IMG/VR virus record: IMGVR_UViG_3300028591_000141
Location: 1-64,000 of that record
Source of the DNA: a virus
Lineage: Duplodnaviria; Caudoviricetes
Direction: 5' to 3' (one strand)
DNA length: 64,000 bases
Both the position numbers and the translations under genes were made by a program. Shown here piece by piece: positions 5,673-24,961 of this stretch. The stretch's first letter is position 1; each line of letters begins with the position of its first letter. The notes under the pieces are model-generated. The model saw only the letters and a program-made list of their open reading frames with translations. It did no database searches and was not told where the DNA came from.

Positions 5673-5709
5673 AGGATTTTTCTCCTTTCATAGCTTTTGG
5701 TTTGTTGCG

Positions 5710-6354
5710 TCATACCGGCCACTGCACATGCCGGAGCAGGTGACCGCAGCCGACTCTCACGTCCCCGTAGATCGGTATGCCGGACGTCCGGCACAGGGCG
5801 CAGAAGTAGAGGTCTTCACTGAGCATCCCCCTGTTCGCGTCCCCATAGTTCACCCAGTCATACCAGGGGTATGAGAGCTTCCGGAATACTTCCGTCCGGA
5901 TAAGCGCGCATCCCATTCCGCCGCCGTGGATTTCAATCTTCCGTTCGCCGGCTTCCTGCATTTCGCGCATCTCTTCCGCCGTGTATTCCGATTCCAGCGG
6001 ATAGTGATAATACTCCTTGCCGTCCTTGTCCTTCAGCCTGCACAGGCACGTGCGCCCGTGATACAGGTTGTCGGATCCCCTGTGGGCGTAATACCCAAGG
6101 CAGACCTGTCTCGCGTCTTCAAGGAGCAACTTCAGTGCGTCCTTCGGCAGCGTGATGTCATTGTCCACCATCAGCACATAGTCCGTCTCAAGATCAATCG
6201 CTTTCTGGGCAATGTGGTTTCTCGCCGTCGCAACGTCATAGCCGCGGACCGACTCAAACAGCACCTCATGCCCGCACTTGTCCAGATCCCATATTGACTT
6301 ATATGTGTCCGGGTAAATCGTTTCAAAGGTAGGTACGGCAATGAGAATTCTCAT
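5710..6354 (-). CDS. GT-A fold (GT2-like) glycosyltransferase inside head operon
   Basis: 'ILIAVPT...ARN...DYVLMVDND...GMGCALI...SEDLYFC'. Confidence 0.8.
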   Translation of the reverse strand: MRILIAVPTFETIYPDTYKSIWDLDKCGHEVLFESVRGYDVATARNHIAQKAIDLETDYVLMVDNDITLPKDALKLLLEDARQVCLGYYAHRGSDNLYHGRTCLCRLKDKDGKEYYHYPLESEYTAEEMREMQEAGERKIEIHGGGMGCALIRTEVFRKLSYPWYDWVNYGDANRGMLSEDLYFCALCRTSGIPIYGDVRVGCGHLLRHVQWPV

Positions 6355-6368
6355 CTTCTATCCCCCGA

Positions 6369-6731
6369 TCAGGTTGCTCCGGTCGCGCCGGTAACACCCT
6401 GCACGCCGATGTTGGTCCGGAATACGATTCCGGGCAGCGCACTGTACAGCGCGGACACATAGGTCACTCCGCTGTGGGTCTGTGCCTTGGCAGCGTCGAT
6501 GATGCCCTGCACAACAGCCGCGCCGTTGGGATTCTCAGCAGTGTCCACGTCATACAGCAGAATGCCGATGGCGCCGGAACCAGTGGTGCTCTCTCCGCTG
6601 GCGTTCAGAGGCGTGCCCGCCTTCACGACCGTACCGCTTCCGGGGGTCGCAACCTTCACAGGAATGGCCTGGAAGTCCTTGCTGGCGAGGATCTCAACGC
6701 CGCCGCCAATCGTGGTCTCAGCATACTTCAT
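6369..6731 (-). CDS. Head decoration protein
   Basis: 'VVKAGTPL...AIGILLYDVD' motif; position between scaffold and capsid; Thr/Gly tail GVTGATGAT. Confidence 0.75.
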   Translation of the reverse strand: MKYAETTIGGGVEILASKDFQAIPVKVATPGSGTVVKAGTPLNASGESTTGSGAIGILLYDVDTAENPNGAAVVQGIIDAAKAQTHSGVTYVSALYSALPGIVFRTNIGVQGVTGATGAT

Positions 6732-6804
6732 GTCTTTTCTCTCCTTTCAAAAGAGTAAATATGTGTCCATCGGTTCAAGCCTTCAGGCTGAACCATCCAG
6801 CTTT

Positions 6805-7494
6805 TTACCGCATGTACCCCTTCAAACCGTCAACAACGGATTTCTCGCTTTCCGCGCGCCTTTTGCCCAGGTTCTTTGCGCGTTCAATTGCCGCTGCCTC
6901 TGCAGCGTCATCGCCGCCGTTCCCGCCGGATCCGGGTCCTGGAATCTTGCCAAACTCGATCCGCAGTGCCTTTTCTTTTGCAGTCCATGCCTGCTGGATC
7001 AGCAACAGCGCATTTTCGATGTTTTCACATCCGATCAGGCTTTCCGCAATCTTTCCGGCAGTATCCTCGTCCACGTTGAGTTTCCCCATCACAGACTTGG
7101 TGTTCTTGGCTTTCGCGACTTCCTTCCGGAGATCTTCCAGTTCCTTGGCCGCTTTTTCATCGGCTTCCTTCTTGTTGGCTGCGTCGATCTCTTCCTGGGT
7201 CATCTTTGCCTTCAGCTGCTTCTGCGCTTCGCCGAGCTGCCGCTTGTTGTCGGCCGCTTCGTGTGTGGCTTTGTCCAGCGCCGCTTTCATGCGGTCCATT
7301 TCAGCCTTCATCTGTTCCATCTGGGCGGCGGCGTTATCCCCGCCTTTATTCGGATCATCGCCACCGGCGCCGCCTTTGTTCGGATCGTCGCCGGCAGGAT
7401 CGTTTCCGCCTCCGGAAGGATTGTTTCCGTCTCCAGCAGGTTCAGCAAAAAACTGAAGTTTCATGGGTAAAATTCCGTTGCGCCATGTTTCCAT
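6805..7494 (-). CDS. Capsid scaffolding protein
   Basis: N-terminal 'KLQFFAE' Prp-type motif, G/D-rich linker, coiled coil; RBS AAAGGAGA. Confidence 0.85.
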   Translation of the reverse strand: METWRNGILPMKLQFFAEPAGDGNNPSGGGNDPAGDDPNKGGAGGDDPNKGGDNAAAQMEQMKAEMDRMKAALDKATHEAADNKRQLGEAQKQLKAKMTQEEIDAANKKEADEKAAKELEDLRKEVAKAKNTKSVMGKLNVDEDTAGKIAESLIGCENIENALLLIQQAWTAKEKALRIEFGKIPGPGSGGNGGDDAAEAAAIERAKNLGKRRAESEKSVVDGLKGYMR

Positions 7495-7520
7495 ATTTTG
7501 TTTCTCCTTTGCGTTTTATC

Positions 7521-7591
7521 GACTTCTCTGTCACTTCGTTTTGCGATTTACGTCTTCTCTGACGTTTTGCGATTTACGTCTTCTCTGACGT
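7521..7591 (-). repeat. 26-bp tandem repeat giving three AGAGAA-loop hairpins in scaffold leader
   Basis: TTTTGCGATTTACGTCTTCTCTGACG twice (7539-7590) plus a degenerate copy; stem ACGTC-AGAGAA-GACGT. Confidence 0.8.
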
Positions 7592-7657
7592 TTATTTCAA
7601 ACGGCATTCACCGTTTAAAACCTGATTCCGCGCTTTGGACGCATCAGCATCCATTTT

Positions 7658-10262: not shown

Positions 10263-11897
10263 TTAAAATAACCGCTCAAATACGCGAACCTGCCCCTGTC
10301 CGAACGTCTGCACATAGTCCGCCAGCATCGCCAGACTATCCGGTCCGTCATCGTGCTTTGCCTTCCCGTTCATTGTCCAGCTGCATACATTGTTCAGGAA
10401 CGTCCTGTATTCCTTGTCTTTGACCACGCTCTGGTCCTTAAATAGGAAATGTTCCTTCACAAACGGGCTTGCCATAATGATCTTCGTCTCTTTTTGCTGC
10501 GTCGTGTACTTTGTAGTCAGTTTCGTCCGCCCGCCGCGCCGCTTTACTTCTTCCTGCACGCTCTGCGCAACCCTGCCGCCTGCACTGTTCGACTCAAACC
10601 GCCCCATATGCACGTTGTGCTGAAGCAGTTTCGTCACGATCTCCGCTTCCACGTTCTCCGGGTTCGCGTTATTGAACACCACGTCCTCAATGTAGTAATC
10701 CTGGCCGTACTGATACGCAATCGGCATGGAGCAGTAGTCGATGCCCCGGTCCTTCGTATCGCACACGCACAGGATCGCGTCCGGTTCCCGGTCCGGAAGC
10801 TCAAAGTACCTCCGCAGCTCATCCGGATGATACAGCAGGCCTTCCCGCTCAATCGGCTGGTTCATGTACAGCGCCCTCCAGTTCGCGTCATCCATAATCC
10901 CACGCTGCTCAATGTAGAACGCCGTGCTGAATCCCACCCCATACAGGTAGTCAAAGTTGCTCTCGTCATTTTCATTCAGCGCCGGAATCGCAATAAACTC
11001 CGCCCTGTCGCTTCCTTCGTACTGCCGCTCCAGTCTGCCCAGAATATCATTGACGCTCCACCGGGTGGCTATGTGCAGTTCCTTGCAGTGATCCCCGATC
11101 TTCCGCTGCCGCAGGTCCGTCGTATACATATCCCACAGTTTGTCAAGCTGTTCCTTGCTCAAAGCGACCTCCAGTCCCTTGATCAGGTCGTCGCAGTACA
11201 ACAGCTGCCCCGCCCGGTACAGACCGGCGTTACCGGATCCGATTGACGTAAACTCCAGCGTCTCAAACCTCTTCGGTTTCCCCAGGTCAATCCGCAGGCT
11301 CTTCGCGTTTGTGTTTGATACGACCGTTTCCGGAAACACGTCATGCCACAGATATTCCCCGTGACCGTCAAAGATCCGCAGGCACTCGTCATATACACCG
11401 CGCACAAACTCATTATTGTGGCTTCCGGTGAGGTTCGGCTCTTCCGGCCACCTTCCGGCTACCCACGTCAGCAAAAATATTGCCAGCGTACTCTTGCCAA
11501 CGCCAGGGGGAAGGCTGATGCCCAATATGTCCAGAAGGTTGTCCATCAGCTTCTGTATGCTGTTTACAACCCGAAGCAGCTGTCTCCTCCTTGGAAGGTA
11601 GAACCGTTTTCTCGGCGCGCGGTTTCGCTCAATGTACTGACAGTACGCGTCAAACATCACCCGCGAATCAATCAGCAGGCTCTTGTAATACGTGTCTTCC
11701 AGGCTCTCCGCAATCCTCACCGTCGCACAGCCGCGCATGGATTTTGCGATAACCTTTCGCATCTGTGCATTGATGTCATGCCAGCCGGTCTCCCCTGCCT
11801 GCGTATGATCGTAAATTATCGAAAGAGCATCCCTGAACACAACCGGGTCGTCCGGATGCGCGTCAATGTATCGCTGAATCTTCTCAATCTCCGTCAT
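10263..11897 (-). CDS. terL: Terminase large subunit
   Basis: Walker A 'SLPPGVGKS', 'LYCDDLIK', nuclease 'KHDDGPDSL'. Confidence 0.92.
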   Translation of the reverse strand: MTEIEKIQRYIDAHPDDPVVFRDALSIIYDHTQAGETGWHDINAQMRKVIAKSMRGCATVRIAESLEDTYYKSLLIDSRVMFDAYCQYIERNRAPRKRFYLPRRRQLLRVVNSIQKLMDNLLDILGISLPPGVGKSTLAIFLLTWVAGRWPEEPNLTGSHNNEFVRGVYDECLRIFDGHGEYLWHDVFPETVVSNTNAKSLRIDLGKPKRFETLEFTSIGSGNAGLYRAGQLLYCDDLIKGLEVALSKEQLDKLWDMYTTDLRQRKIGDHCKELHIATRWSVNDILGRLERQYEGSDRAEFIAIPALNENDESNFDYLYGVGFSTAFYIEQRGIMDDANWRALYMNQPIEREGLLYHPDELRRYFELPDREPDAILCVCDTKDRGIDYCSMPIAYQYGQDYYIEDVVFNNANPENVEAEIVTKLLQHNVHMGRFESNSAGGRVAQSVQEEVKRRGGRTKLTTKYTTQQKETKIIMASPFVKEHFLFKDQSVVKDKEYRTFLNNVCSWTMNGKAKHDDGPDSLAMLADYVQTFGQGQVRVFERLF

Positions 11898-12261
11898 CGT
11901 TCTCCTCCAGCATTTTCAGCATAACCCGCTCCGCTTCGGACGTGACCTTCGCAAGCCTCGGAAGCTGCCTCGCAACCCAGTCAACCATCGTCTCGTCATG
12001 CCCCATTTCAGGATGCCCCCAGTCGTCTCCAAGCCCGCACTCAAACAGCATCGCGTGTACAATCTCATGCCGCAGCACATGCGCCATAAACTCTTCCGGC
12101 CTTTTCAGGTTCCCTATCTTCCGCCCGTCATAAATGACAATGGAACGCTCCGTCCAGTCCGTAAACCCGCTGCACTCCGCAAGCCTCTTCTCGTCAGTCT
12201 CCTCCTGGATCCTTACTTCCCATTCCGCACCCATGATCTCAATGCTGAAATGCTTCATCAT
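11884..12261 (-). CDS. Phage HExxH metallopeptidase-like protein
   Basis: 'VLRHEIVHAMLFECG'. Confidence 0.6.
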   Translation of the reverse strand: MMKHFSIEIMGAEWEVRIQEETDEKRLAECSGFTDWTERSIVIYDGRKIGNLKRPEEFMAHVLRHEIVHAMLFECGLGDDWGHPEMGHDETMVDWVARQLPRLAKVTSEAERVMLKMLEENDDGD

Positions 12262-12273
12262 ATTCCTCCAAAT

Positions 12274-12320
12274 AAAAACGGGAACAAGCCTCTCGGCTCA
12301 TTCCCGCAATTCTGCGTCTT
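12274..12320 (-). terminator. Terminator/attenuator upstream of terL unit
   Basis: GCGGGAATGAGCC-GAGA-GGCTTGTTCCCGT followed by TTTT; preceded by AAGACGC motif. Confidence 0.7.
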
Positions 12321-12344
12321 ATCGTTTCTTATCCGTGTTTGTCC

Positions 12345-12842
12345 TTACGTCCCAAGCTTCGTCCGGTTTATCCGTCCGCACTTCGGGCAGCTGTACTCTA
12401 TTGCCGCGCCCATCTCCGTCTGCACCCTCCTCCCACGGGCATATACAAACCGCCCGCAGTAGTGGCACACCCTCGACGGTGCCTTGCTGATGGTAGCCTC
12501 ACCGCTCTCCAGCTCTTCCTTGAACCGCTCGCGCTTGCGACGGGCGTCCCGCAGGTCCCGGCTCTTCAGTTCCCGCTCCATCGAATACCGCCCCGGCCTC
12601 GGATTCATTCGCTCAAAGTTCCGCTTCCGTGCGTTCCGTTTCCACTCCGGTGAGTCCGGCCCGCCGTCCGCCCAGTAGTTCAGCCGGTTAATGTGCGCCA
12701 TGGAATCGTGCCGTTCACCGGCGCCCATCAGCAACAAAACAACACAGATCACCGCCGCCAGTCCGGCCGCGCCCCATTGCCCGTTGTCCGCGCACGCAGA
12801 TATCACGACAACAGCTATGATAATAATCATCACGGCAATCAT
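12345..12842 (-). CDS. Membrane protein with C-terminal zinc ribbon
   Basis: Two hydrophobic N-terminal segments; CHYC...CPKC. Confidence 0.6.
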   Translation of the reverse strand: MIAVMIIIIAVVVISACADNGQWGAAGLAAVICVVLLLMGAGERHDSMAHINRLNYWADGGPDSPEWKRNARKRNFERMNPRPGRYSMERELKSRDLRDARRKRERFKEELESGEATISKAPSRVCHYCGRFVYARGRRVQTEMGAAIEYSCPKCGRINRTKLGT

Positions 12843-12894
12843 ATATCATCTGTCACCGCCTTTTTTATTTTTCCGGGATTTTTGAAAACACCTT

Positions 12895-13158
12895 TTATTC
12901 CTTCACCGCGTTCTTCTTCGACCGGGGTGCCTTCCCAACAACAAACTTCATCGGTTCCCCTACACCCTCGTCCCGCATAATCACGCTGTACCCTGGCGCG
13001 TTCTTCGAGATGTTCCACTGCACTACGTTCCCTTCCAGCACTTCACACTGCGTATCGATCTCCTTCAGCGCGTCCTGCAACACACCAAGCACAACATCAA
13101 CCTTCAGACCGTCCTTGATCTCAATGAATACGTTCGGATTCTTCGCCATGATGCCCAC
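12895..13158 (-). CDS. Hypothetical protein
   Basis: ORF coupled to upstream HTH gene; RBS AAGGAG. Confidence 0.55.
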   Translation of the reverse strand: MGIMAKNPNVFIEIKDGLKVDVVLGVLQDALKEIDTQCEVLEGNVVQWNISKNAPGYSVIMRDEGVGEPMKFVVGKAPRSKKNAVKE

Positions 13159-13161
13159 TCC

Positions 13162-13428
13162 TTACTTCTCCTCAGTGTCTTCTTCGTCCCTGCTGTTTTC
13201 TACTTCATACCATCCGCTCCGAAGCGCTACATCCTTCGGAACCAGCATGATCTTGTACCCGAACACGCCGAGCATCTGATTCAACACGTTCGTGCTGAAG
13301 TTTCTCCTATTCAGTCTGCTCGCTAACGCGTTCGGCTGCAGTCCGAGCTTCTCTGCCAGCGCGTTAAACCGCACTCCGTTCTTACCCATCAGTTCCCTGA
13401 TAATCTCGTTCGTCTTCATCTCGTTCAT
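13162..13428 (-). CDS. Cro/XRE-like HTH repressor
   Basis: 'FNALAEKLGLQPNALASRL' HTH; own promoter at 13454-13482; start re-assigned from ORF track. Confidence 0.75.
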   Translation of the reverse strand: MNEMKTNEIIRELMGKNGVRFNALAEKLGLQPNALASRLNRRNFSTNVLNQMLGVFGYKIMLVPKDVALRSGWYEVENSRDEEDTEEK

Positions 13429-13453
13429 CTTCCTCTCGTGTCCTTTCATGATG

Positions 13454-13771
13454 ATGATATCACTTTTATGTGACCTTGTCAACACTTTTTTGTGACTATT
13501 TTGGCTTTTTTTATTTTTGGGATGCTGAGGAGGGTAAGGATGCCGGGGCGCCTGGGGCCGTATATCCCCGCGGGGCGGATCCGGTCCGCCGCGCCTGGCC
13601 AGGTTCCCGGCGGCATATAGCCAGGCGCCGGAACCATGCCGACGCGGAAACGGACGACCGTTTTTTTGTTTATATAATGGAAGAAAAAAATAATTCATAA
13701 AAAAGTGAGTAAAAAGTATTGACAATCATATTTTTGTGAGTTAATATTATCATGCAATCACAAATAAGTGA
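13454..13771. promoter_or_regulatory. Divergent SigA promoters with five palindromic operators TCAY-W6-GTGA
   Basis: Minus TTGACA-17-TATCAT (13482-13454); plus TTGACA-17-TAATAT (13719-13747); operators at 13460, 13482 (ACAC variant), 13695, 13726, 13758. Confidence 0.8.
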
Positions 13772-13800
13772 TTGACAATAAAAAATCGGAGGGCATGAAA

Positions 13801-14775
13801 ATGGAACTTATAACAAAAGACACACTGTCAACAATCAAGGCACTTGACGATGGATCCGCCGTATTGAAACTGTATAACAATGCCGCTTGCGTATTTGAAA
13901 AGACGTATAAATCTTTTCGCGGTGCAAAACAGGCGGAAAAATTCTATATTTCCCACGGTGCACCGGGAAACAATAAAATTGTTTGCAAGTGGTGTGGTTG
14001 GACGGGAACACGCGGCGAACTTGATTTTGACGAACACGACGCGCCGTCGTTTTGCCCGGTTTGCGGAAAAAACGAATTCAAAAAAAGCGACAAAAAAGGA
14101 TATGATATCAAAAAATTATTTGACGTCGTAGATAATGCAATTAATACGGACAGGGCCGTATTCCATGAGCCGCGCGACAATAGCAAGTTAAAAGGTATTC
14201 CATCGTTTAACCTTGCGCCGGGCCGGACCTGCAGCGCGGCGGCATGCGCGCATTGCTTAAAGGAAGGATGTTATGCAGTAAAAAACGCATGCTGTCACGG
14301 ATACGATATAGAAAACAATTATTGCCTTAAGGCCTGGACAGAAAACACGGCGCTTGCGATTAATCATCCGCGTGAACTGGAAAAGGCGCTTGACGCCTGG
14401 CTAACTAAAAACAGGCCCGCGCTTTTCCGTATTCATTCAAGTGGGGATATGTTTTCGGTAGAATACGCCCGCATGTGGCGCCGCATTGCAATGCGGCACG
14501 CGGAAACGCGTTTTCTGGCCTTTACGAAACAATTTGACGTTGTGCGGCACGTGCATTTTTACAAGCTCGCGAATTTTGAGCTTGTTTTGAGCGGCTGGAC
14601 GGGCGTACGCGTCCCGGACGACTTGCGGAAACATTATCGCGTTGCGTGGTGCAATGATGGACAGGAAAAGCGTATTCCGGCGGACGCGATACACTGTCCC
14701 GGCGATTGTAACAAGTGCCGCGCATGTTGGTACTTGTCCAGGCTGCAAAAAGACAGCTATTTTGACAAGCACTGA
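13801..14775 (+). CDS. GP88-like Cys-rich protein with N-terminal zinc ribbon
   Basis: 'SFNLAPGRTC...C..C...GCYA', 'FRIHSSGDMFSVEY', 'FTK', 'CPGDCNKCRACW'; CKWC/CPVC ribbon. Confidence 0.7.
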   Translation: MELITKDTLSTIKALDDGSAVLKLYNNAACVFEKTYKSFRGAKQAEKFYISHGAPGNNKIVCKWCGWTGTRGELDFDEHDAPSFCPVCGKNEFKKSDKKGYDIKKLFDVVDNAINTDRAVFHEPRDNSKLKGIPSFNLAPGRTCSAAACAHCLKEGCYAVKNACCHGYDIENNYCLKAWTENTALAINHPRELEKALDAWLTKNRPALFRIHSSGDMFSVEYARMWRRIAMRHAETRFLAFTKQFDVVRHVHFYKLANFELVLSGWTGVRVPDDLRKHYRVAWCNDGQEKRIPADAIHCPGDCNKCRACWYLSRLQKDSYFDKH

Positions 14776-14856
14776 GCCCGGACCCGGCCGGGCCCGCGTC
14801 CGGCCGGGTATATATACCACGTAAAAAAACGACTAAAAAAAGCGGAGGGAAAAACA

Positions 14857-15147
14857 ATGGATATTAATACAATTATTGCAAACTACCTGCAGGAAAAGGC
14901 CGCGGAGGCCGCCGCAAAAAAACGCGCGGAGGCAATGAAGGCACTTATACTTGACCATGCTAAAAACGCGGATAATTTTACGACAGACGTTTACACCGTT
15001 GTTATAAAAACGTCGTCAAGTGTACGCCTGGACACGGCGGCGCTTTACAGAGACTTTCCGGATATAAAAGACACGTACGGAAAAACAACGACGTCAAAAA
15101 CAGTTAACGCCGTTATAACGGCGGACGCGGAAAAGAAAAGCGCTTGA
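14857..15147 (+). CDS. Small coiled-coil protein of MGE type
   Basis: RBS GGAGG; 'RLDTAALYRDFPDI..TY.KTTTS' resembles C-terminal tail of YqaJ-like exonucleases. Confidence 0.65.
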   Translation: MDINTIIANYLQEKAAEAAAKKRAEAMKALILDHAKNADNFTTDVYTVVIKTSSSVRLDTAALYRDFPDIKDTYGKTTTSKTVNAVITADAEKKSA

Positions 15148-15202
15148 TTGTAACGGGCCCGGGCGGAGCGGATCCGCCCGGAGCCGCGGCGCTATATATG
15201 AA

Positions 15203-15646
15203 ATGGAGGTTTTGAAAATGTATTATACCGTTTACGACGTGCACGAAAACAGGAACACGAAAAGCTTTTTCGGGTATGAAATAGTTGTTGACGGCGAGCA
15301 CGGCCGCGATACTTTCCCGGGCAAGTGGGACCCGGCGGAGGCTAAACGCCATTATATGCAGGGCCTGCCGTGGTCCGAACCACTGAAAAACGCGCACACG
15401 TATATTATCTGTCTTTCCGGCAACTTTTACGCGCTCGCGGCGGACGCGTTTATGACTACAGTGTACGCAATTGGTCCGGACCGGCGCGGCCTGAATGACG
15501 CGGAATATTTCACGGGCTCCGTAAAGGAAAGAAACGCCGCCATCCGCTCGGTATGCGTTCCGCACGACTACAAAACCGCGCGCCGCATTGCAGAAGAGAA
15601 CGGCATTTATTCCGGACAGCTTTACGCATACGAAACGGAGGTGTAA
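15203..15646 (+). CDS. Hypothetical protein (island)
   Basis: RBS GGAGG (likely start at MYYTV); operon context. Confidence 0.65.
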   Translation: MEVLKMYYTVYDVHENRNTKSFFGYEIVVDGEHGRDTFPGKWDPAEAKRHYMQGLPWSEPLKNAHTYIICLSGNFYALAADAFMTTVYAIGPDRRGLNDAEYFTGSVKERNAAIRSVCVPHDYKTARRIAEENGIYSGQLYAYETEV

Positions 15647-15650
15647 ACAT

Positions 15651-15914
15651 ATGAAAATGTTATTGACGGCGGACCGGATCCGCACCGTTGTTGCGGACGC
15701 CCGGACCGAAAAAGATATAGAGCTGTCGCTCCGCTCGCACAAAATAAAGTTTTCCTACGATACAAGCGCCGGGTTTATGGCCTTCAGAATTCCGGCCCGC
15801 TCCGGTACGGTCCTGGTATATCGGACCTGTAACCGCTCCACCCCTTTTGCGGTCAGGTGCTCCGCTCCGGCCGTCTATCCGTACACACTGCCCCGTCTCG
15901 CCTGTGGTGATTGA
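15651..15914 (+). CDS. Hypothetical protein (island)
   Basis: RBS GGAGGTG before ATG 15651. Confidence 0.6.
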   Translation: MKMLLTADRIRTVVADARTEKDIELSLRSHKIKFSYDTSAGFMAFRIPARSGTVLVYRTCNRSTPFAVRCSAPAVYPYTLPRLACGD

Positions 15915-15931
15915 CAAGGGAGGTTCAGACC

Positions 15932-16183
15932 ATGGGAAGAAAGTACACTGGCCTTTTTGAGGATGAAGTGGCGGAGCTGCTCCGCTCCGCCGCTCCGGGT
16001 GCCGTGATTGTTTCCGGTCCGTTTTCCTGGAGCATGGCGCACACGCTCGCGGAGGACGGCATATATACAAGCGGTGCCGGTTATGTGACCGAATATATAA
16101 ACGGGATCCGCTCCGGTATCCGCTCCGCCGCTTCTCTTGTTTTCCGCCTTGCGCATACTGATTTTGAAATTATGGAGGTATAA
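15932..16183 (+). CDS. Hypothetical protein (island)
   Basis: RBS GGAGGT before ATG 15932. Confidence 0.6.
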   Translation: MGRKYTGLFEDEVAELLRSAAPGAVIVSGPFSWSMAHTLAEDGIYTSGAGYVTEYINGIRSGIRSAASLVFRLAHTDFEIMEV

Positions 16184-16187
16184 AGCA

Positions 16188-16934
16188 ATGTATAATTCCG
16201 CTCCGTATACCACGCCCGGCGGCCGCGTTTACCGCCTGTATACGCACCTTGCCGACCGTCCGCACCTGCTCATTGCAGGCGCCACCGGTTCCGGTAAAAG
16301 CGTGACTATAAACGGCATTATATACGCGCTACTGGCCACCCGTGCCCCGTCCGAATGCGGTTTTATCCTGCTGGACCCGAAAAAGGTGGAGCTTGTCCAG
16401 TACGCACGCCTGCCGCACGTCGTCCGCTATGCGTCGGAACCGTCCGACATGATCGACGCGCTAGAATATGCCGTCCTGGAAACGGAGCGCCGCTTTTCAG
16501 AAATGCAGCGCGCCGGCGTCCGGGAATATTCCGGCCCGGACCTGTACGTGATCGTCGACGAGCTCGCCGACCTCATGGTAACACAAAAGAACGTCGCCCT
16601 GCCTCCGCTCCAGCGCCTGGCACAGATCGGCCGCGCCGCTCATGTGCACGTGATCGCCTGCACGCAAAACGTTATGGCCGTAACAATCCCGACCGTCCTG
16701 AAATGCAATTTTCCGGCCGTTCTAGGCCTGCGTACGGCCACGGCGGCACAATCCCGCTACCTGATCGCTGCACCGGGCTGTGAGACCCTTCCAGACCCGA
16801 AAAAGACCGGTAAAGGCTGCGGGTACCTCCGCGACGGTGCTGACCTGGACCGTTATGAACTCTACATGTACCCTGAAGAAGAAATCACCCGCATGATTAA
16901 TTACTGGACCGCCGGCGCCCGCCGTGCCAGCTGA
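16188..16934 (+). CDS. Stand-alone FtsK/SpoIIIE-family ATPase domain
   Basis: 'HLLIAGATGSGKS', 'LLDPK', 'YVIVDELADL', 'QIGRAAHVHVIACTQ'; no TM or gamma domain. Confidence 0.88.
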   Translation: MYNSAPYTTPGGRVYRLYTHLADRPHLLIAGATGSGKSVTINGIIYALLATRAPSECGFILLDPKKVELVQYARLPHVVRYASEPSDMIDALEYAVLETERRFSEMQRAGVREYSGPDLYVIVDELADLMVTQKNVALPPLQRLAQIGRAAHVHVIACTQNVMAVTIPTVLKCNFPAVLGLRTATAAQSRYLIAAPGCETLPDPKKTGKGCGYLRDGADLDRYELYMYPEEEITRMINYWTAGARRAS

Positions 16935-16948
16935 TGGGAGGAATTAAC

Positions 16949-17149
16949 ATGACGCCTGAAATGCTGTATGAAGAAACGATTTCGTTCCTGGCTACCTGCC
17001 TGCTGGGCGAAGGTGACCCGGAACCGATGACCGCTGAGGATGCCGCCTATACTATGTCCAACTGGACCGCGGAAGGCATCGAATATCCGGAAGGTATGAC
17101 GCCGGATCTGATGTCCGCCGTATGGAATTGCATGATCGCTACCATGTGA
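16949..17149 (+). CDS. Small acidic hypothetical protein
   Basis: RBS GGAGGA; D/E-rich with no K or R; followed by hairpin plus T-tract at ~17163-17197. Confidence 0.6.
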   Translation: MTPEMLYEETISFLATCLLGEGDPEPMTAEDAAYTMSNWTAEGIEYPEGMTPDLMSAVWNCMIATM

Positions 17150-17362
17150 TACACCCGCTCCGCCACCGCTCCGGGATCCGTTCCCGGGGTGGTTTTTCTT
17201 TGTTCAAATACGCTCGTTTTTGGCTCTCGTCTGTTGTCCTGTTTTCCTACTTAAATCTTCCCTGTTTTGATCTGTTATTTTTGTCTTTACTTATGTCTAT
17301 TTCTACTTGCCACAATCCCCCGTTTATGGTATCATATTTCCATGAAGGGAGGTTTACGCCTT

Positions 17363-17923
17363 ATGAAAATCGGATATGCCCGCGTTTCCACTCAAGACCA
17401 GAACCTGGACCGCCAGCTGGACAACCTCCGCGCCGCCGGTTGCGAACGGATCTTCAATGAGAAGATGACCGGAACGAAATCAGACCGGCCGGAGCTCAAG
17501 ACCATGCTGCTTACGCTCCGCCCCGGTGACATCCTCGTCATCGATTCCTTCTCTCGTCTCAGCCGCTCCACAAAGGACCTGCTTGATCTCGTCGACCGGT
17601 TGACCGGGATGGGCGTCCACCTTGTCAGCCTGAAGGAAAACCTGGACACAACCACGGCCACGGGGAAACTGATGCTGACGATGCTTTCCGCTCTGTCTCA
17701 GTTTGAGCGTGACCTGATCGCTGAGCGCACGGTTGACGGTCTGAAGGCCGCCCGGGCCCGCGGTCGCTGCGGAGGCCGTCCCCGTGCCGGAACGGATAAG
17801 GACCGTCAGCAGGCGCTGGCCATGTACGACGCCAATGTGATGAGTAACGCGGAGATCGCCGCTCATTTCAACGTATCGCAATCGACGCTCAGCCGCTGGA
17901 TCCGCAGCAGGAAGCAGGGATAA
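17363..17923 (+). CDS. Small serine recombinase (resolvase/invertase)
   Basis: 'KIGYARVSTQDQNLDRQ...DRPEL...SRLSRS', C-terminal HTH; AT-rich upstream region 17200-17340 (possible res site). Confidence 0.93.
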   Translation: MKIGYARVSTQDQNLDRQLDNLRAAGCERIFNEKMTGTKSDRPELKTMLLTLRPGDILVIDSFSRLSRSTKDLLDLVDRLTGMGVHLVSLKENLDTTTATGKLMLTMLSALSQFERDLIAERTVDGLKAARARGRCGGRPRAGTDKDRQQALAMYDANVMSNAEIAAHFNVSQSTLSRWIRSRKQG

Positions 17924-17944
17924 TCCCCCTGCTTCTTTTTTTAT
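17911..17944 (+). terminator. Intrinsic terminator after resolvase
   Basis: GAAGCAGGG...CCCTGCTTC followed by TTTTTTT. Confidence 0.7.
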
Positions 17945-18025
17945 ACCCTGAAGCAACCTGTCACGTCGTAAGGTATATATATTATTATTTATTCGTATAA
18001 GTAGTATATATACCCATGCCCAGGC

Positions 18026-18580
18026 TCACTCGTCCTCGTCCGGGATCGCTTCCTCCAAACGCTTGCGTGCCTGTTCCGCATCCAGTCCCTGCATCGGATT
18101 GTTCGGTGTGACCACCACGTCCGTCTGGTCCTTGTAAGCATGGTTGTTTTTGAGCAAAAATATTGCCGCGACCGGATTGATTTTTCCGTCAGCCATAGTC
18201 TGAGTCAATAGCTGGTTCATTATGCTATAGGCTTTTTTTATAGCGTAACGAGACCGCTCTGGTATATTTCCACATTCCACATTGTTTGACCACCGCCACA
18301 ACTGCATTCTATTCGTATTAAAAGCAAGAGCCAACGACTCAACGGTAGGCTTCATATCGTGTTTAATCATATATTTAAGGGTCTTATTAATTCGTTCTTC
18401 AACAGCATCAGGATCGTTAATATCAACTGGCCCAAAGCTTGACAAACTCACAGCGTCCGTAATCATACGAGCCATATCTCCAGGTTCGTACTGTGGTAAG
18501 TATTCTTCGCTTCGTTTTGGCCGTTTGTGTTTCTGTTTTGACACGATATCAACAACTTTATTTTCCGTGTCCTTATCCAT
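18026..18580 (-). CDS. terS: Terminase small subunit (P22 gp3-like)
   Basis: 'PTVESLALAF..NRMQLWRW' HTH; 'AAIFLLKNNHAYKD'. Confidence 0.8.
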   Translation of the reverse strand: MDKDTENKVVDIVSKQKHKRPKRSEEYLPQYEPGDMARMITDAVSLSSFGPVDINDPDAVEERINKTLKYMIKHDMKPTVESLALAFNTNRMQLWRWSNNVECGNIPERSRYAIKKAYSIMNQLLTQTMADGKINPVAAIFLLKNNHAYKDQTDVVVTPNNPMQGLDAEQARKRLEEAIPDEDE

Positions 18581-19304
18581 TCCGGTTAGCCTCCTTCCAT
18601 GCCATATACTTTTTATATTCCTGCTCTGTGTACAGGTGTGTTGCGGGACAATGTGAGTCTACCCACAGTTCGAACCCGTGTACGGCAGCCCGAACGCAGA
18701 AGTGACGATCCTCTCCGTAGAGTGCTCGCTGAATGTTCGGGATGTGTGTGTAGTCAACGCCGGATTCGAGCACTTTGCGTTTAACGAGTGTGCATGCGCC
18801 GGTCATTCCGCACTGGTAGAGTCCCGGGTTATGCCATTCATTGAGCATACCGGATCCCTGGTCGAACATCCATGCGTTGCACCATGTGTGGATATCTTTT
18901 GATGTAGACCAGAATATTTCCGACACGATGTCCTTGTCTGCGTCGAGCAGGAAGCGGAGCGTGTCCTGGTGCAGCACGAGGTCAGTGTCCACGGAGAACC
19001 AGTAGTCATACCCGTGATCGAGTGCGTGCTGGATGGTCATGTTCCGGAGCGCTTCCATTGCGCGCATGTTTGAGTCGGACCAGATATGGTCGTTATGGGT
19101 TTTACTGTATGCTTCGCCCGTATTGTGAACGATATATTTGTCAGATTCGCGCAGGCATGGGATCAATTCAGGACAGTCATTGATGACGTAAAACGTGTCG
19201 AGTGTGAATCCATCCGGGACGATCAGTCTGTCAATTGAGTCACGGTATTCATTGAATATTTTTGGTTCCTGCCGTGCGGGAGCGGTAATAAGTATTTTTT
19301 TCAT
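18573..19304 (-). CDS. GT-A fold glycosyltransferase
   Basis: 'LRN...DYWFSVDTD...GACTLV...GEDRHFC'. Confidence 0.8.
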   Translation of the reverse strand: MKKILITAPARQEPKIFNEYRDSIDRLIVPDGFTLDTFYVINDCPELIPCLRESDKYIVHNTGEAYSKTHNDHIWSDSNMRAMEALRNMTIQHALDHGYDYWFSVDTDLVLHQDTLRFLLDADKDIVSEIFWSTSKDIHTWCNAWMFDQGSGMLNEWHNPGLYQCGMTGACTLVKRKVLESGVDYTHIPNIQRALYGEDRHFCVRAAVHGFELWVDSHCPATHLYTEQEYKKYMAWKEANRNG

Positions 19305-19921
19305 TAGATCTCACCTCGCTTGTGAAGGTCCGAGAGTGAACCTGGTCGCATGAAGTTATAGTAATACATTGGGAGTGCTGTCCAACTTCCTATAGGTTTA
19401 CGTTCAAGCAGTTTAGTTAGGAAGCGCACGTCTGAAGAATACTGACCGTCATCGAACCTGGTGTCTCCGATAAATTCCCTGCGCCAGGCATGTCCCGCGA
19501 CCATTTTAATATACGAGCCGGCGGGCTGAAATTTGTAACCGACAGTGCGCCATATGATTCCGAAAATAAGCGCGTCCGACTTACCGTCTTTCAGGCAGTC
19601 GAACATCAGCTGGAGCACGAACTCATGCAGCCACCAGTCATCATCGTCAAGGAACAGTATGTACCGTCCGCGTGCCGCATCGAGTCCTACGTTCCTTGCG
19701 ATTCCGTCTCGGTGAGCGCATGCCTCATACATCCGGATTCTGTCGTCACCATGTGCAATGCATTTAACAATGTCCTGCGTTTTGTCCGTGCAGCTGTCGC
19801 ATACAACAATGATTTCAAAGTCAGTGAAGGACTGGTACAGGCAGGAATCGATTGCTTTTCCGATCCGATCAGCGCCATTGTATGTAGGGATAATGATCGA
19901 GAAGAACGGAGCGTCACTCAT
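19304..19921 (-). CDS. GT2 family glycosyltransferase
   Basis: 'FSIIIPTYN...ARNVGLDAARGRYILFLDDDD'. Confidence 0.9.
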   Translation of the reverse strand: MSDAPFFSIIIPTYNGADRIGKAIDSCLYQSFTDFEIIVVCDSCTDKTQDIVKCIAHGDDRIRMYEACAHRDGIARNVGLDAARGRYILFLDDDDWWLHEFVLQLMFDCLKDGKSDALIFGIIWRTVGYKFQPAGSYIKMVAGHAWRREFIGDTRFDDGQYSSDVRFLTKLLERKPIGSWTALPMYYYNFMRPGSLSDLHKRGEI

Positions 19922-20258
19922 CTTTGTCACCGTCCTTCTTTTCCAGGAAACCGCATTCTTCCATGACTGTGCGGTTGGCACGGCGTATGACCATCCATAT
20001 AACCTTCGTTGGGATGTTATGCTTCAGTGAGTAGTCCTCGACAGCGTACTGATCGTCACCCCAGCGCGTAGTGAAGTACATTTGCAGGATGTCCTGATCA
20101 GACTTCACGAACGACTTCAGGAAAATGTGGTGGCACACGGCATAGATACGCCTGTCAGGCTGGGAGAGTTTATCCCAGTTGAACCCGTCGCGCTGCAGGG
20201 CGAAGTATGTACGCCACATGTGGTTTGCCACGCCGCGCCACCATTCAATGCTCTTCAT
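19914..20258 (-). CDS. Putative late transcription regulator
   Basis: Position before packaging genes; C-terminal HTH-like segment. Confidence 0.4.
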   Translation of the reverse strand: MKSIEWWRGVANHMWRTYFALQRDGFNWDKLSQPDRRIYAVCHHIFLKSFVKSDQDILQMYFTTRWGDDQYAVEDYSLKHNIPTKVIWMVIRRANRTVMEECGFLEKKDGDKDE

Positions 20259-20436
20259 TCACATCACCTCCGTTGTGAGATTTAAGGATATTTACTGCCT
20301 CGTCAAGTTCGCGGATACGTGCGGCCGCCTCACGCACTGTGCGGATACGGTCCTTTGAAAGCATACCGCCCGCTTCCGCCATGATGTCAAGGCGACGCAG
20401 GAGTTCAGGCGTCTTCATTGGCACGATGTTGTTCAT
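20245..20436 (-). CDS. Hypothetical protein
   Basis: Translationally coupled ORF; 'VREAAARIREL'. Confidence 0.55.
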   Translation of the reverse strand: MNNIVPMKTPELLRRLDIMAEAGGMLSKDRIRTVREAAARIRELDEAVNILKSHNGGDVNEEH

Positions 20437-21059
20437 TTTGCATCACTCTCCGGCAACAATGCTTCTGTGTATATAAACTGCCCGATGTGTCCGCATGATA
20501 CAGAACTGTCGCAGTAGATTTGATAACCGAGTTGGTTTACCCTGTAGCAGAAGGATATATCCTCGCTTGCCCACGGGTACGGGGTGAACGCCGGCCCGAA
20601 CTCGTCCCATACATGCTTCAGCAGTTTTGTGGACGTCAGCACGCATCCGAATCCGCATCCTGCGACCTGGAAGAAACTGTCGCGCGGATAGTTTATGTAC
20701 GCGCTGATGTTGGCAACGAGTTTCCCGTCCGCTCCACGTTCCGGTTCCTCCAGTTTGTCATACAGCACAGGCTCCACGGGTTCGTGACGCTTCACGTACA
20801 GTCCGGTTACCATGTCCATGCCGTACGATTCCAGCTTCGTGAGCGTGTTCGGCGGGAAGAGCATGTCCGAGTCGAGCCACAGCACGTCGTCGAAACCATT
20901 CTCGATTGCGTACAGGCTGATCAGGTTGCGGCTGTCGTACACCAGTGAGTTAGGTTTAAAGTATACTGTAGGGTTGTCACCCTTGTGCATGTACAGCAGC
21001 GACTGCACGAACCCGACGGGCAGCATGTCCATGCATGGGATTGCGATGAGTGTTTTCAT
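20433..21059 (-). CDS. GT-A fold glycosyltransferase (paralog of 5710-6354)
   Basis: 'TLIAIPC...SRN...VLWLDSD...GFGCVL...SEDISFC...CGH'. Confidence 0.8.
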   Translation of the reverse strand: MKTLIAIPCMDMLPVGFVQSLLYMHKGDNPTVYFKPNSLVYDSRNLISLYAIENGFDDVLWLDSDMLFPPNTLTKLESYGMDMVTGLYVKRHEPVEPVLYDKLEEPERGADGKLVANISAYINYPRDSFFQVAGCGFGCVLTSTKLLKHVWDEFGPAFTPYPWASEDISFCYRVNQLGYQIYCDSSVSCGHIGQFIYTEALLPESDAK

Positions 21060-21274
21060 AATTTCAACCACCCGTTTTCATTGTTTATTTTTATTATTTC
21101 GTCTACCTCTTCTTTATGATTTTCTAACCACTCTGTCACTGCTTCATGAACAAATTGTGATATAGATGCTTTTTTATCATTCATAAACATTCTCTTTACA
21201 AGTGCCATTACAGCAAGTTTATAATGAAGTTCATGTTCCATTGAAATTGTGAACGTGCTTCGTTTAGCGCTCAT
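21056..21274 (-). CDS. Ribbon-helix-helix-like small regulator
   Basis: 'RSTFTISMEHELHYKL...SISQFVHEAVTEWL'. Confidence 0.5.
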   Translation of the reverse strand: MSAKRSTFTISMEHELHYKLAVMALVKRMFMNDKKASISQFVHEAVTEWLENHKEEVDEIIKINNENGWLKL

Positions 21275-24501: not shown

Positions 24502-24961
24502 ACAGCTCCTTTCAGTGCGTTCACAATATCATTACCTCTGTAAATTACAATCATGCTCGGAAACGGTGCGTTCCATTTCGCGTTTCCGTATTTCAACCTG
24601 CCTCTGACAAACCTGATTTCCGCCTTCCCGTATACATACTCATGAAACCATTTCGTGTCTGTACGCGCTGGAATCAGCATGACCGCAGTACCCCCACTAT
24701 GGAATGTTCAAGGCACTTGCGGCACCATGCGTCCATGCCTTTCCCGTACGGAGGATTGCACCACACTGTCTCGCCGGTCCAGTCATGTAAAAGTCCGTCC
24801 TGTTCCTTCGTGAAGTACCGGCTACATTTCGCGTTCTCTGCCGTTGCGCACACATCCAGGGTGAACCTGAATTCATCGTTCAACCTGTCAAACAAATCCT
24901 TCGGCGTTTCCCATTCATCCGTAGAAGAGGAAAACATGCCGTCGTTCAGGTACTTACTCAA
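24498..24961 (-). CDS. Phage N6-adenine DNA methyltransferase, split by -1 frameshift at G5 (24691-24695)
   Basis: 'DEWETP...FTLDVCA...VWCNPPY' in ORF ending 24674, continued by 'GTAVMLIPARTDTKWFH...APFPS' in -1 frame. Confidence 0.8.

Follow-up and report, generated by a model that had tools for sequence, protein, structure and literature searches.

The interval between the small and large terminase genes (terS and terL) of a sheep-gut phage, which measures 6.1 kb within the 64,000 nucleotides of DNA that were analysed (the window), holds a gene island. Comparison with related contigs supports it as a unit gated by a repressor, resident in the phage and conserved through its lineage, as opposed to a recent insertion. 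The best explanation of the evidence as a whole is that the island is a resident early module which lies astride the probable packaging site, represses its own transcription and is protected at its end by Chi-like words; taken in all its parts, this account has about an even chance of being correct.

Layout of the terS-terL interval

The initial annotation, which had placed the terminase genes about 6 kb apart, described an opposite-strand operon between them (a GP88-like gene, five small ORFs and a stand-alone FtsK gene) followed by a resolvase gene. The ORFs and their Pfam matches confirm this arrangement, and the plus-strand order is GP88, o96, o147, o87b, o90, FtsK, o71 and the terminator at 17165-17193. 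The extent first assigned, 13162 to 17944, was too short on the leftward side, where the unit, which really runs from about 12278 to 17940, includes HTH, o87 and o165 as far as their terminator. The features are as follows.

10263-11897, minus: terL (large terminase), which opens the structural block; weak match to the PF22530 nuclease domain
11884-12261, minus: SprT-like metalloprotease-like ORF overlapping the terL start; PF10263 E=1e-4, phrog_1233 E=6e-20
12278-12307, minus: intrinsic terminator (13-pair stem, then T run) closing the leftward HTH-o87-o165 unit
12345-12842, minus: o165; N-terminal hydrophobic segment and C-terminal CxxC...CxxC ribbon in the ORF translation
12895-13158, minus: o87, small ORF
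13162-13428, minus: HTH DNA-binding protein, putative autorepressor; RBS and start assigned by sequence inspection, alternative start 13449
13454-13495, minus: HTH promoter (TTGACA-17-TATCAT, 11/12 matches, TG extension) with operators O1 (13460-13473) and O2 (13482-13495)
13505-13660, minus: conserved GC-rich DNA element, candidate packaging (cos/pac) site, oriented toward terL
13695-13771, plus: operon promoter (TTGACA 13719 -17- TAATAT 13747) with operators O3-O5
13801-14775, plus: GP88-family protein extended at the N-terminus by a zinc ribbon; PF17338 56 bits (cut-off 24)
14857-15147, plus: o96, resembling the C-terminal tail of RecE-like exonucleases; phrog_434 positions 275-368, E=5e-8
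15203-15646, plus: o147, ORF with RBS
15544-17859, minus: cluster of 17 copies of the Chi-like word (G)GAGCGG, all on this strand
15651-15914, plus: o87b, small ORF accompanying FtsK in relatives
15932-16183, plus: o90, ORF with RBS
16188-16934, plus: stand-alone FtsK/SpoIIIE motor domain, 248 aa; PF01580 118 bits, Walker A and B intact
16934-17149, plus: o71, small acidic protein by its translation; start overlaps the FtsK stop
17165-17193, plus: intrinsic terminator (12-pair stem, then T run), operon end
17307-17937, plus: cassette of a small serine recombinase gene (17363-17923) with promoter (17307-17335) and terminator (17909-17937); PF00239 155 bits, HTH_7
18026-18580, minus: terS (small terminase); PF16677 GP3_package E=6e-6, below cut-off

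TerL is 41-85% identical in 49 viral contigs, with the portal gene following in every case, and terS homologues lie upstream of the island in relatives. The SprT-like ORF is also found in L002, L006 and L046, homologues of o165 occupy the equivalent position in about nine relatives, and o87b is matched by tblastn in six (at most 73% identity); o96 and o71 each have a copy elsewhere, 71% identical in L022 and 50% identical in L011 respectively. The small serine recombinase (resolvase), which has a promoter and a terminator of its own, is 81-87% identical in L008, L013 and L014. No family matched o87 in family and profile searches, or o147 in family searches. The initial annotation had put the small ORFs forward as candidate anti-defence or host-takeover proteins, and this proposal found no backing, as family searches matched them to no known family of either kind.

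The GP88-family protein is predicted to have the fold of a radical-SAM-like Fe-S enzyme: the top structural matches of its AF2 model (pLDDT 91) are radical SAM enzymes (Z 7.8-5.5). The family has invariant Cys clusters, and 106 homologues were collected. The FtsK motor, which lacks the membrane anchor, the alpha domain and the gamma domain, matches FtsK structures at E=6e-29, and its motifs are invariant in 12 homologues. The extreme avoidance of GAG/CTC that had been reported for the first gene of the operon is real, with 4 copies in the 975 bp of the GP88 gene, the lowest value of the whole record, compared to a mean of 22 (sd 5.9) in windows of that size and with a Markov observed/expected ratio of 0.36. 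The codons of the gene (GAA:GAG = 14:2) account for much of the depletion, out-of-frame GAG is likewise depleted, and GP88 genes are GAG-depleted at 12 of 14 loci. Instead of an escape from restriction, the pattern may reflect codon usage or selection against words that resemble Shine-Dalgarno sequences.

Divergent promoters and the element between them

The divergent HTH gene and its five operators, as first described, are present: the pattern TCAY-N6-GTGA occurs as four exact sites (13460, 13695, 13726, 13758) and one variant (13482) within 310 bp, and it has only three matches elsewhere in the window, none of the three with an A/T spacer. In each of the two divergent promoters the 17-nt spacer is filled by one operator; at the operon promoter this is O4 (13726), with O3 at 13695 and O5 at 13758, just past the start site. 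Homologues of the HTH protein lie at the equivalent place in nine relatives, and relatives carry palindromes of their own, differing from one to the next, at the equivalent operator places. We infer that the HTH protein, which has weak matches to DUF6471, HTH_24 and HTH_26 as well as matches to phage repressor PHROGs, acts as a repressor.

The GC-rich non-coding stretch that had been noted between the promoters at 13540-13660 is likewise confirmed, with 72.8% GC at 13525-13660 against 32% and 23% in the flanks. The element is made up of an A-tract (13505-13518), a C-rich box (13519-13540), the palindrome CCCCGCGGGG (13566-13575) and GCGCCTGG-type repeats. It occurs in constant orientation in more than 20 contigs (13 aligned relatives, some 10 additional metagenome contigs and L211, a distant phage of low GC), with a length of 110-150 nt and a palindrome of the form C4N2G4, and it is conserved better than the adjoining HTH protein, for which identity is about 30%. 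Several relatives have arrays of tandem repeats beside the element; a search of the element for RNA structure and covariation found none, and an Rfam search gave no match. Such conservation may mark a genome end or packaging site. Assembled contigs cross the proposed site, and contigs that end nearby do so at differing nucleotides, as expected for strain variation and not for a physical end.

Polar words and the position of a possible DNA end

The word (G)GAGCGG is under selection in the island genes, where it is observed 15 times compared to 2.9+-1.5 expected from synonymous shuffles, which makes it the top over-represented 6-mer (z=8.3). Copies fall in all three frames as well as between genes. 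Its copies lie on the terL-coding strand, facing the GC-rich element, though the island genes sit on the opposite strand. The minus:plus ratio of AGCGG in the 1.6-kb stretch marked in the initial annotation (18:1) is the strongest asymmetry of the record, and the first 1.7 kb of the operon contains no Chi-like words. Same-strand clusters recur in L006 (25:5), L013 (19:0), L016 (18:0) and L022 (24:1) and are absent from L003, L005 and L017. The minus bias of the word spans the whole genome (60:19 here and 37:6 in the relative G2), so the asymmetry is not wholly particular to the island. A single base separates the word from GAAGCGG, the Chi of S. aureus, and AGCGG, the Chi of B. subtilis, lies within it (PMC5959072, Table 3). 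Its function would be that of a Chi site. The earlier description of Chi-like motifs facing a DNA end on the left holds for the geometry, but the word is better described as (G)GAGCGG.

Three independent lines of evidence (the element, the one-strand cluster of Chi-like words and the position of GP88 genes in mycobacteriophages) would fit a DNA end near 13.5-13.7 kb. The original reading of the interval as a leading region is partly supported: the island is borne out as a resident, gated unit, its candidate anti-defence role is not. What counts against an end here is the distance of 4.4 kb between terS and the proposed site, since a pac or cos site usually falls within terS or a short way upstream of it. 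Among characterised phages the nearest TerL relatives, at about 25% identity, are presumably those of pac-type dairy phages, and headful packaging would give such a geometry in the first headful only. The Chi-free first 1.7 kb of the operon, the genome-wide bias of the word and the relatives that lack the cluster also weigh against this reading.

It is possible, though unlikely, that the interval is instead a regulatory or early region unlinked to DNA ends, in which an immunity-type switch would control an accessory operon, the element would be a late-regulator site or an origin (with iteron-like repeats and an A-tract), and the polar word would reflect genome-wide replication or recombination polarity. 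The origin-like repeat arrays and A-tract that adjoin the element favour this, as do the extension of the strand bias beyond the island and the need of terL for its own promoter, which arises because the island interrupts transcription arriving from terS. However, the element stands anywhere from 3 to 37 nt from the HTH -35 box, a poor geometry for an activator site; word density peaks several-fold directly beside the element in five phages; and the element accompanies terL-type structural modules across replication modules of widely differing kinds (DUF927, DnaB, VapE and D5-type).

The presence within 5 kb of a motor, a site-specific recombinase and polar words aimed at a palindrome, together with some serine recombinase in the intervals of many relatives, would also suit a phage analogue of FtsK/KOPS/dif, in which the motor reads polar GGAGCGG and brings the palindromic element to the recombinase to resolve or circularise concatemers. 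This is highly improbable: the motor lacks the KOPS-reading gamma domain, o71 is acidic with no winged helix, the word polarity does not switch at the element, and the recombinase is a variable cassette, missing from the intervals of several relatives. A contig from another sample also joins 17195 to 17951 across intervening content that may or may not be this cassette, with loose ends at 17938-17974.

Conservation, closest known systems and proposed mechanism

The layout is common to about 15 related phage contigs. The order terS, (Res) ... FtsK ... GP88-family gene <-> HTH ... terL is seen in about 12 IMG/VR relatives and three further lineages, one of which has a minimal form where an overlapping GP88-FtsK pair is all that separates terS from terL. 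Across the lineage the terS-terL gaps are 2.6-8.5 kb, and co-occurring strains have hypervariable content between conserved flanks. An integrative or transposon-like mobile element, with a resolvase and an FtsK transfer protein, inserted between terS and terL is hardly credible, in spite of the serine recombinase, the FtsK-type ATPase, the island's own regulator, its mosaic content from strain to strain and a GC3 and codon use unlike those of the late genes, since the position is constant among phages whose TerL proteins are 41-85% identical, the two-gene minimal form included, and the gap is a lineage trait. Nor do the data support an independent element with its own att site or target duplication, an outcome that the initial annotation had considered: flanking direct repeats or a target duplication around the island were not found, megablast of plasmid and phage records gave no near-identical match, and the record has no second copy.

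The closest parallel is in Cluster A mycobacteriophages, 90 of which have GP88 homologues 1.6-2.5 kb from the right cos end; gene 88 of D29 is the second gene of the right-end leftward operon, which is described as driven by the repressor-controlled early promoter Pleft (PMC5712189). In the L5/D29 Pleft operon (genes 89-88...), as proposed here, a GP88-family gene heads an operon read inward from beside the genome end, a phage repressor at the promoter operator controls the operon (PMC5712189), and once the genome is circular, cos separates the operon from the arm with the terminase and structural genes. L5 and D29 differ in having mapped cos ends, where the end here is a proposed one, a distant repressor gene, many stoperators, no FtsK motor and a terS-terL pair not split by the operon. 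The lambdoid phages LLS and MD8 show the same geometry, with Chi in active orientation clustered by their right cos end, away from the terminase genes (PMC12315714). There, and in the arrangement proposed here, many copies of a short polar word lie on the terminase-coding strand, densest just short of the genome end and oriented for recognition by a nuclease that enters there. Their Chi is the known host octamer with measured RecBCD dependence (PMC12315714), whereas the word here is a 6-7-mer resembling Firmicute Chi, carried by five of about 12 relatives.

Strong host-type promoters directed inward, variable content, atypical composition and codon use, and motif depletion in the DNA that enters first are shared with the first-injected regions of T7, T5, SPO1 and Autographiviridae (PMC12455610) and with the leading regions of conjugative plasmids (PMC11541004, PMC13478746). 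The island differs from these in its putative autorepressor, its place between terS and terL, an entry order that is deduced, and a gene content in which no known anti-defence gene was recognised. Other stand-alone phage FtsK-like proteins (phrog_1358; Cluster J mycobacteriophages, large Bacillus phages), annotated as FtsK-like DNA translocases, also have intact ATPase motifs, but the motor described here is paired with a GP88-family gene and has a fixed place between terS and terL.

According to the preferred reading, the region at about 12.3-17.9 kb would be a resident module, astride a likely packaging site, of a phage lineage infecting ruminant-gut Clostridia. The small HTH protein would bind the five 14-bp palindromes at two promoters, the one that drives its own gene and the strong divergent one that drives the operon, in which a GP88-family Fe-S (radical-SAM-like) protein and a stand-alone FtsK-type ATPase form the conserved core. 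DNA that arrives naked would be transcribed from both promoters until the HTH protein had built up enough to shut them, so that the early burst would be brief, and lysogens would keep the operon silent. The oriented element between the promoters would be the site of terminase recognition and cutting, pointing to terL, and if it is the cut site, the operon would lie at the last-packaged, first-ejected end and be transcribed inward. The dense (G)GAGCGG words would be Chi-like stops for an AddAB-type nuclease that attacks from that end, whether the DNA has been injected or has been left with a free end by the packaging cut. GP88 and FtsK may, at a guess, use ATP to handle or modify the DNA as it enters.

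Layout and residency of the terS-terL interval

The window belongs to a 98,779 bp IMG/VR virus record whose sequence is present in sheep-gut metagenomes. In phage A, terS (18026-18580) and terL (10263-11897), both on the minus strand, are separated by 6.1 kb, and the interval between them contains two divergent transcription units and a recombinase cassette.

Features of the terS-terL interval of phage A
13162-13428, minus strand: HTH gene, first of the leftward unit, followed by the small ORFs o87 and o165
12307-12278, minus strand: terminator at which the leftward unit ends
13801-14775, plus strand: GP88, first gene of the rightward operon, followed by the small ORFs o96, o147, o87b and o90
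16188-16934, plus strand: FtsK motor, followed by the small ORF o71
17165-17193, plus strand: terminator of the rightward operon
17363-17923: small serine recombinase, with its own promoter and its own terminator

Both divergent promoters are near-consensus (TTGACA-17-TATCAT with a TG extension, and TTGACA-17-TAATAT), and five 14-bp palindromes of the form TCAY-N6-GTGA, four exact and one variant, occur within 310 bp around them. Each promoter has one palindrome filling its 17-nt spacer and another a short way upstream of its -35 box, and the fifth overlies the start of the operon transcript; elsewhere in the 64 kb there are only three matches, none of the three with an A/T spacer. Family matches of the HTH protein fall under the curated cut-offs, and it is placed as a putative repressor with operators by the position of the palindromes in or beside both promoters. 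Such a placement would allow the HTH protein, by its predicted binding, to repress both its own gene and the operon. The one RNA run examined yielded six short low-depth contigs, which are too sparse to reveal transcription. In the relatives the layout is kept and the palindromes differ from phage to phage, as is the case in immunity regions. All of the elements described in the initial annotation are found in the sequence, and its observation is confirmed and has been extended.

The recombinase has both a catalytic domain (PF00239, 154.8 bits) and a C-terminal HTH (HTH_7, 27 bits). The ORF o71 (16934-17149) is small, strongly acidic and translationally coupled to the FtsK motor, with no family match and no FtsK_gamma match, and o147 gave nothing above chance in the Atlas search. 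PDB sequence searches with TerL and with TerS returned no match. Around the interval, a SprT-like, metalloprotease-like ORF with an HEIVH motif (11884-12261) overlaps the terL start codon and is also found at the loci of three relatives (contigs L002, L006 and L046), immediately upstream of terS are two to three genes for glycosyltransferases (18573-21071), and a PAPS-reductase-like gene lies at 24954-25841; in the related contig L003, two PAPS-reductase paralogues (5375-7650) stand between the HTH gene and terL. GC-rich hairpins followed by TATATA occur after GP88 and after o96 (14776-14815 and 15150-15200).

Comparison of the interval across related phages indicates that the module is resident in the lineage and is not an insertion. 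A TerL 41-85% identical to that of phage A is encoded in 49 viral contigs, and in the roughly 12 of these with sufficient sequence upstream the order is terS, recombinase (in some), FtsK, GP88-family gene, divergent HTH, terL; the alternative first genes, clusters c13 and c42, also belong to the GP88 family. GP88 homologues of other lineages occupy the same position, and one 46-kb contig has in the interval only GP88 and FtsK, overlapping each other on the opposite strand, together with a serine recombinase. Gaps of 2.6-8.5 kb between terS and terL recur throughout the wider lineage, the cultured Clostridium phage Maintenon among them. An integrative mobile element, occurring at unrelated loci with its own attachment sites or target duplications, is ruled against by the absence of flanking repeats and by the GP88-FtsK pair lying in the terS-terL interval every time it was found; in addition, no second copy of the island was found in the record, and no near-identical (megablast) match of the region in phage or plasmid records.

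The content of the interval is mosaic. Breaks in the contigs of other samples fall at 13681 and at 17938-17974, a sheep-gut contig from one of these samples connects 17195 with 17951 over the recombinase cassette, and one sample has no cover over the GP88 and FtsK portions. The loose contig ends at 17938-17974 come from three samples and indicate a mosaic joint that lies between the resolvase and terS. Prophage relatives are located in Flavonifractor, Blautia and Lactonifactor genomes, a cultured example being the prophage of Flavonifractor sp. An92, and another part of the record has a weak candidate for a tyrosine integrase of phage A, so that the lineage is probably temperate, with Clostridia as hosts.

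The record also holds a second, complete-looking phage, phage B, at window 27100-64000 and running on to record position ~65800, with its own terminase (58406-59917), portal and tape-measure genes. Because the 38.7 kb filled by phage B are missing from two complete relatives of phage A, and because the two ends of the 98.8-kb record adjoin each other in those relatives, the record looks like either a circularly permuted phage A (~60 kb) with phage B nested in it or an assembly chimera.

GP88, its FtsK partner and GAG avoidance

GP88 belongs to Pfam family PF17338 (56.1 bits against a curated cut-off of 24.4), which is carried by 106 of 106 GP88 homologues, and the Atlas clusters nearest to it are 97-99% GP88. 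Over 45 homologues the invariant or near-invariant residues include C144, C152, C157, H212, G215, D216, K243, C299, C303, C306 and C309. The cysteine motif C144-X4-C149-X2-C152, in which C144 is invariant and C152 at least 90% conserved, has the spacing CX4CX2C in place of the canonical radical SAM motif CX3CX2C after strand beta-1; non-canonical cluster spacings occur in a few radical SAM members. The AlphaFold model of GP88 has a pLDDT of 91, and radical SAM enzymes make up most of the top 30 structural matches, over GP88 residues 120-324. The exhaustive structural alignment scores for spore photoproduct lyase (Z 7.8), QueE (7.3) and viperin (6.8) are borderline, since values below 8 lie within the background of the tool. 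Foldseek with the model returned nothing at E<=1e-3, and GP88 has no Radical_SAM Pfam match. GP88 is accordingly described here as radical-SAM-like and is not called a member of the superfamily.

A tblastn search of GP88 against isolated phages matched 96 records, of which 90 are Cluster A mycobacteriophages. Among the matches listed the homologue is encoded by the minus strand, at a distance of 1.6-2.5 kb from the right end. Gene 88 of D29 comes second in the right-end leftward operon, the lysis, terminase and structural genes being at the left end. The right-end operon is driven by Pleft, an early lytic promoter under phage repressor control (PMC5712189). Once such a genome is circularised, its GP88/terminase topology is the same as that of phage A. 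Of five additional metagenomic contexts, four again have the GP88 gene immediately upstream of the terL block, and in the fifth it lies beside an integrase. The right cos end of D29 (record 48827-49127) has within 50 bp a G/C-run palindrome, GGGGGGTTCCCCCC, which resembles in style the C4N2G4 core of the phage A element; this is a resemblance only.

The partner of GP88 is a RecA-like FtsK motor domain (PF01580, 118 bits) with invariant Walker A and B motifs, which FtsK crystal structures match at E=6e-29. Its 248 residues constitute the motor alone, with neither the membrane anchor nor the KOPS-reading gamma domain, and the PADLOC matches to SspH and mad8 were set aside since they cover only the shared ATPase domain. 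The constant pairing and translational overlap of GP88 and the FtsK motor suggest a joint activity on DNA.

The extreme GAG/CTC avoidance reported for the first gene of the operon is borne out: the GP88 gene has four GAG or CTC words in 975 bp, the minimum of the record. GAG is depleted in GP88-family genes at 12 of 14 loci, in some of which the gene has a GC content equal to that of its own genome, with frequencies per kb of 3.4 in the gene against 18.2 in the genome for contig L011 and 3.1 against 20.7 for L211. The depletion is on the sense strand, where GAA is preferred over GAG by 20:1, 13:0 and 14:0; AAG is avoided only in part, and CAG is not avoided at all in several loci. The recurrence at 12 of 14 loci, together with out-of-frame GAG at about one-fifth of the terL level, makes GAG avoidance a conserved property of these genes. 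One reading of this property is restriction avoidance, and in T7-like phages restriction sensitivity is indeed decided by motif loss in the first-injected region (PMC12455610). Another is that an early gene under strong translation is adapted in its codon use or avoids internal words resembling Shine-Dalgarno sites; in plasmid leading regions the consistent signal is codon adaptation and not motif depletion (PMC13478746).

The conserved GC-rich element and the Chi-like words

Between the two promoters lies a non-coding element (13505-13660), of which positions 13525-13660 have a GC content of 72.8%, against 23-32% in the promoters on either side. It has the following parts.

Parts of the element, read toward terL
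1: repeats of the GCGCCTGG type
2: palindrome CCCCGCGGGG (13566-13575); in relatives C3-5 N2-5 G3-5, with a variable centre
3: variable bases, about 30
4: box (T)ACCCCCnTCmGCACCCC
5: A-tract AAAAATAAAAAAG
6: HTH promoter, at a distance that ranges from 3 to 37 nt

The element is present as a single copy in one orientation in 13 aligned relatives, and the HTH proteins beside it are only ~30% identical among themselves. It also occurs, likewise once and in that orientation, in about ten further metagenome contigs and one distant low-GC phage; the metagenome copies come from a degenerate pattern scan whose output was mostly unrelated DNA, with ~12 true elements kept after filtering. A distant BLAST search of phage records with the element gave no match.

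In appearance the element is like a cos or pac region, having a GC core of two-fold symmetry, an asymmetric flank and an A-tract, the whole directed at the structural genes. The symmetric core, the asymmetric flank and the orientation to the structural genes make the element a candidate packaging site of one of these types, and such features are not specific to packaging sites. According to the main rival, the switch is kept and the element would be a replication origin or the site of a regulator. Contigs from IMG/VR and from metagenomes end at various positions around the element, and the 24 sequencing runs covered, all as assembled Logan contigs, gave no reported starts or ends. The reading of the element as a non-coding RNA was dropped, and the element is treated as a DNA site, because Rfam gave no match at gathering score (chance-level matches only within 13400-13800), the GC-rich stretch taken as a single sequence folded no better than its shuffles (z -0.14 and -0.93), and RNAalifold on 13 copies gave four pairs with no covariation.

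The terminal repeats of relatives were rejected as true ends, being assembly overlaps, of 127 nt in one and of an 80-nt tandem-array piece in another. Tandem repeat arrays adjoin the element in several relatives. Within the terS-terL interval, long arrays are seen in contig L013 (8554-8870, beside the conserved element), with 9-12 nt units of the CCTCCTGCG type, and in record G004, with 40-nt units; the G004 array, at the record ends (L090 and L091), is what IMG/VR scored as direct terminal repeats. A near-palindrome of 18-21 nt around CGGATCCG has three copies in the window, in the spacer element (13576), the o96/o147 intergenic region (15169) and the start of o87b (15675), the spacer copy being inverted relative to the others; the islands of L013, L016 and L022 likewise show enrichment of CGGATCCG.

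The Chi-like motifs that the initial annotation saw facing a left-hand end are real, confined to one strand and over-represented. In the stretch it had singled out, AGCGG is present on the minus strand and its complement in the ratio 18:1, the strongest asymmetry of the record, and the selected word (G)GAGCGG has 17 copies at 15.5-17.9 kb and none on the opposite strand. Its coding-strand form CCGCTC occurs 15 times where synonymous-codon shuffles of the eight island genes give 2.9+-1.5, which makes it the top 6-mer (z=8.3), and the 5- and 7-mer forms head their lists as well. Coding bias does not explain the word, since it lies on the terL-coding strand, opposite to the island genes; copies are found in each of the three frames and also between genes. 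The islands of four relatives have same-strand clusters (25:5 in L006, 19:0 in L013, 18:0 in L016 and 24:1 in L022), with significant enrichment over shuffles in three of the four. The cluster is absent from other relatives, perhaps owing to a difference in host. Over the whole genome, too, the word favours the same strand (60:19 in phage A, 37:6 in the relative G2), and the first 1.7 kb of the operon has no copy.

The word contains the B. subtilis Chi site AGCGG and is one base away from that of S. aureus, GAAGCGG (PMC5959072). Its over-representation and single orientation relative to the proposed end are those of a Chi site, and its likeness to AGCGG and GAAGCGG makes it a candidate for recognition by the host AddAB, with attenuation of the nuclease. 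The word is oriented as would suit a nuclease travelling rightward from an entry point left of 15.5 kb, namely the conserved element. The arrangement matches that reported for the lambdoid phages LLS and MD8, whose Chi sites cluster on the terminase-coding strand near the right cos end, the free end left by terminase being where RecBCD enters (PMC12315714).

Possible implications for genome ends and first-entry genes

The interpretation in the initial annotation, in which a virion DNA end would lie in this spacer and the operon would enter first, is partly supported: the conserved self-regulated module stands, and three sequence signals, each independent of the others, point to a putative DNA end at the element. 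It had also proposed the small ORFs as candidate anti-defence or host-takeover proteins, and no match to families of either kind was found for the operon in Pfam, PHROGs, PADLOC or NCBIfam.

A more specific and rather improbable proposal is that GP88, as an Fe-S enzyme, and the gamma-less FtsK motor, encoded on the first-entering DNA and made in a self-limiting burst, form a machine that acts on the phage's own entering chromosome. The pair might pull in the rest of the genome, in the manner of the second-step transfer functions A1/A2 of T5, or might chemically modify or process the DNA while it is threaded, and the adjacent Chi-like array would meanwhile hold off AddAB. If this were true, the lineage would carry a dedicated, end-linked module for genome internalisation or protection.

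Early-injected regions, terminal Chi clusters and the Pleft operon are already known; what this region adds is a candidate packaging site and the new, coupled GP88-FtsK pair, which forms a defined, testable two-gene unit. If the element is the packaging site, then a cos-like element, a facing Chi-like array and an inward, repressor-gated operon, all three recognisable in the sequence by itself, would together mark a genome end. Genome ends and first-entry genes would then be predictable in gut phages that have not been cultured and whose termini are hardly ever mapped, the terminal Chi cluster of lambdoid phages and the early-injected region of T7-like phages would be extended to Firmicute siphophages, and the unstudied GP88 family would be tied to genome ends both in Cluster A mycobacteriophages and in these Clostridia phages.
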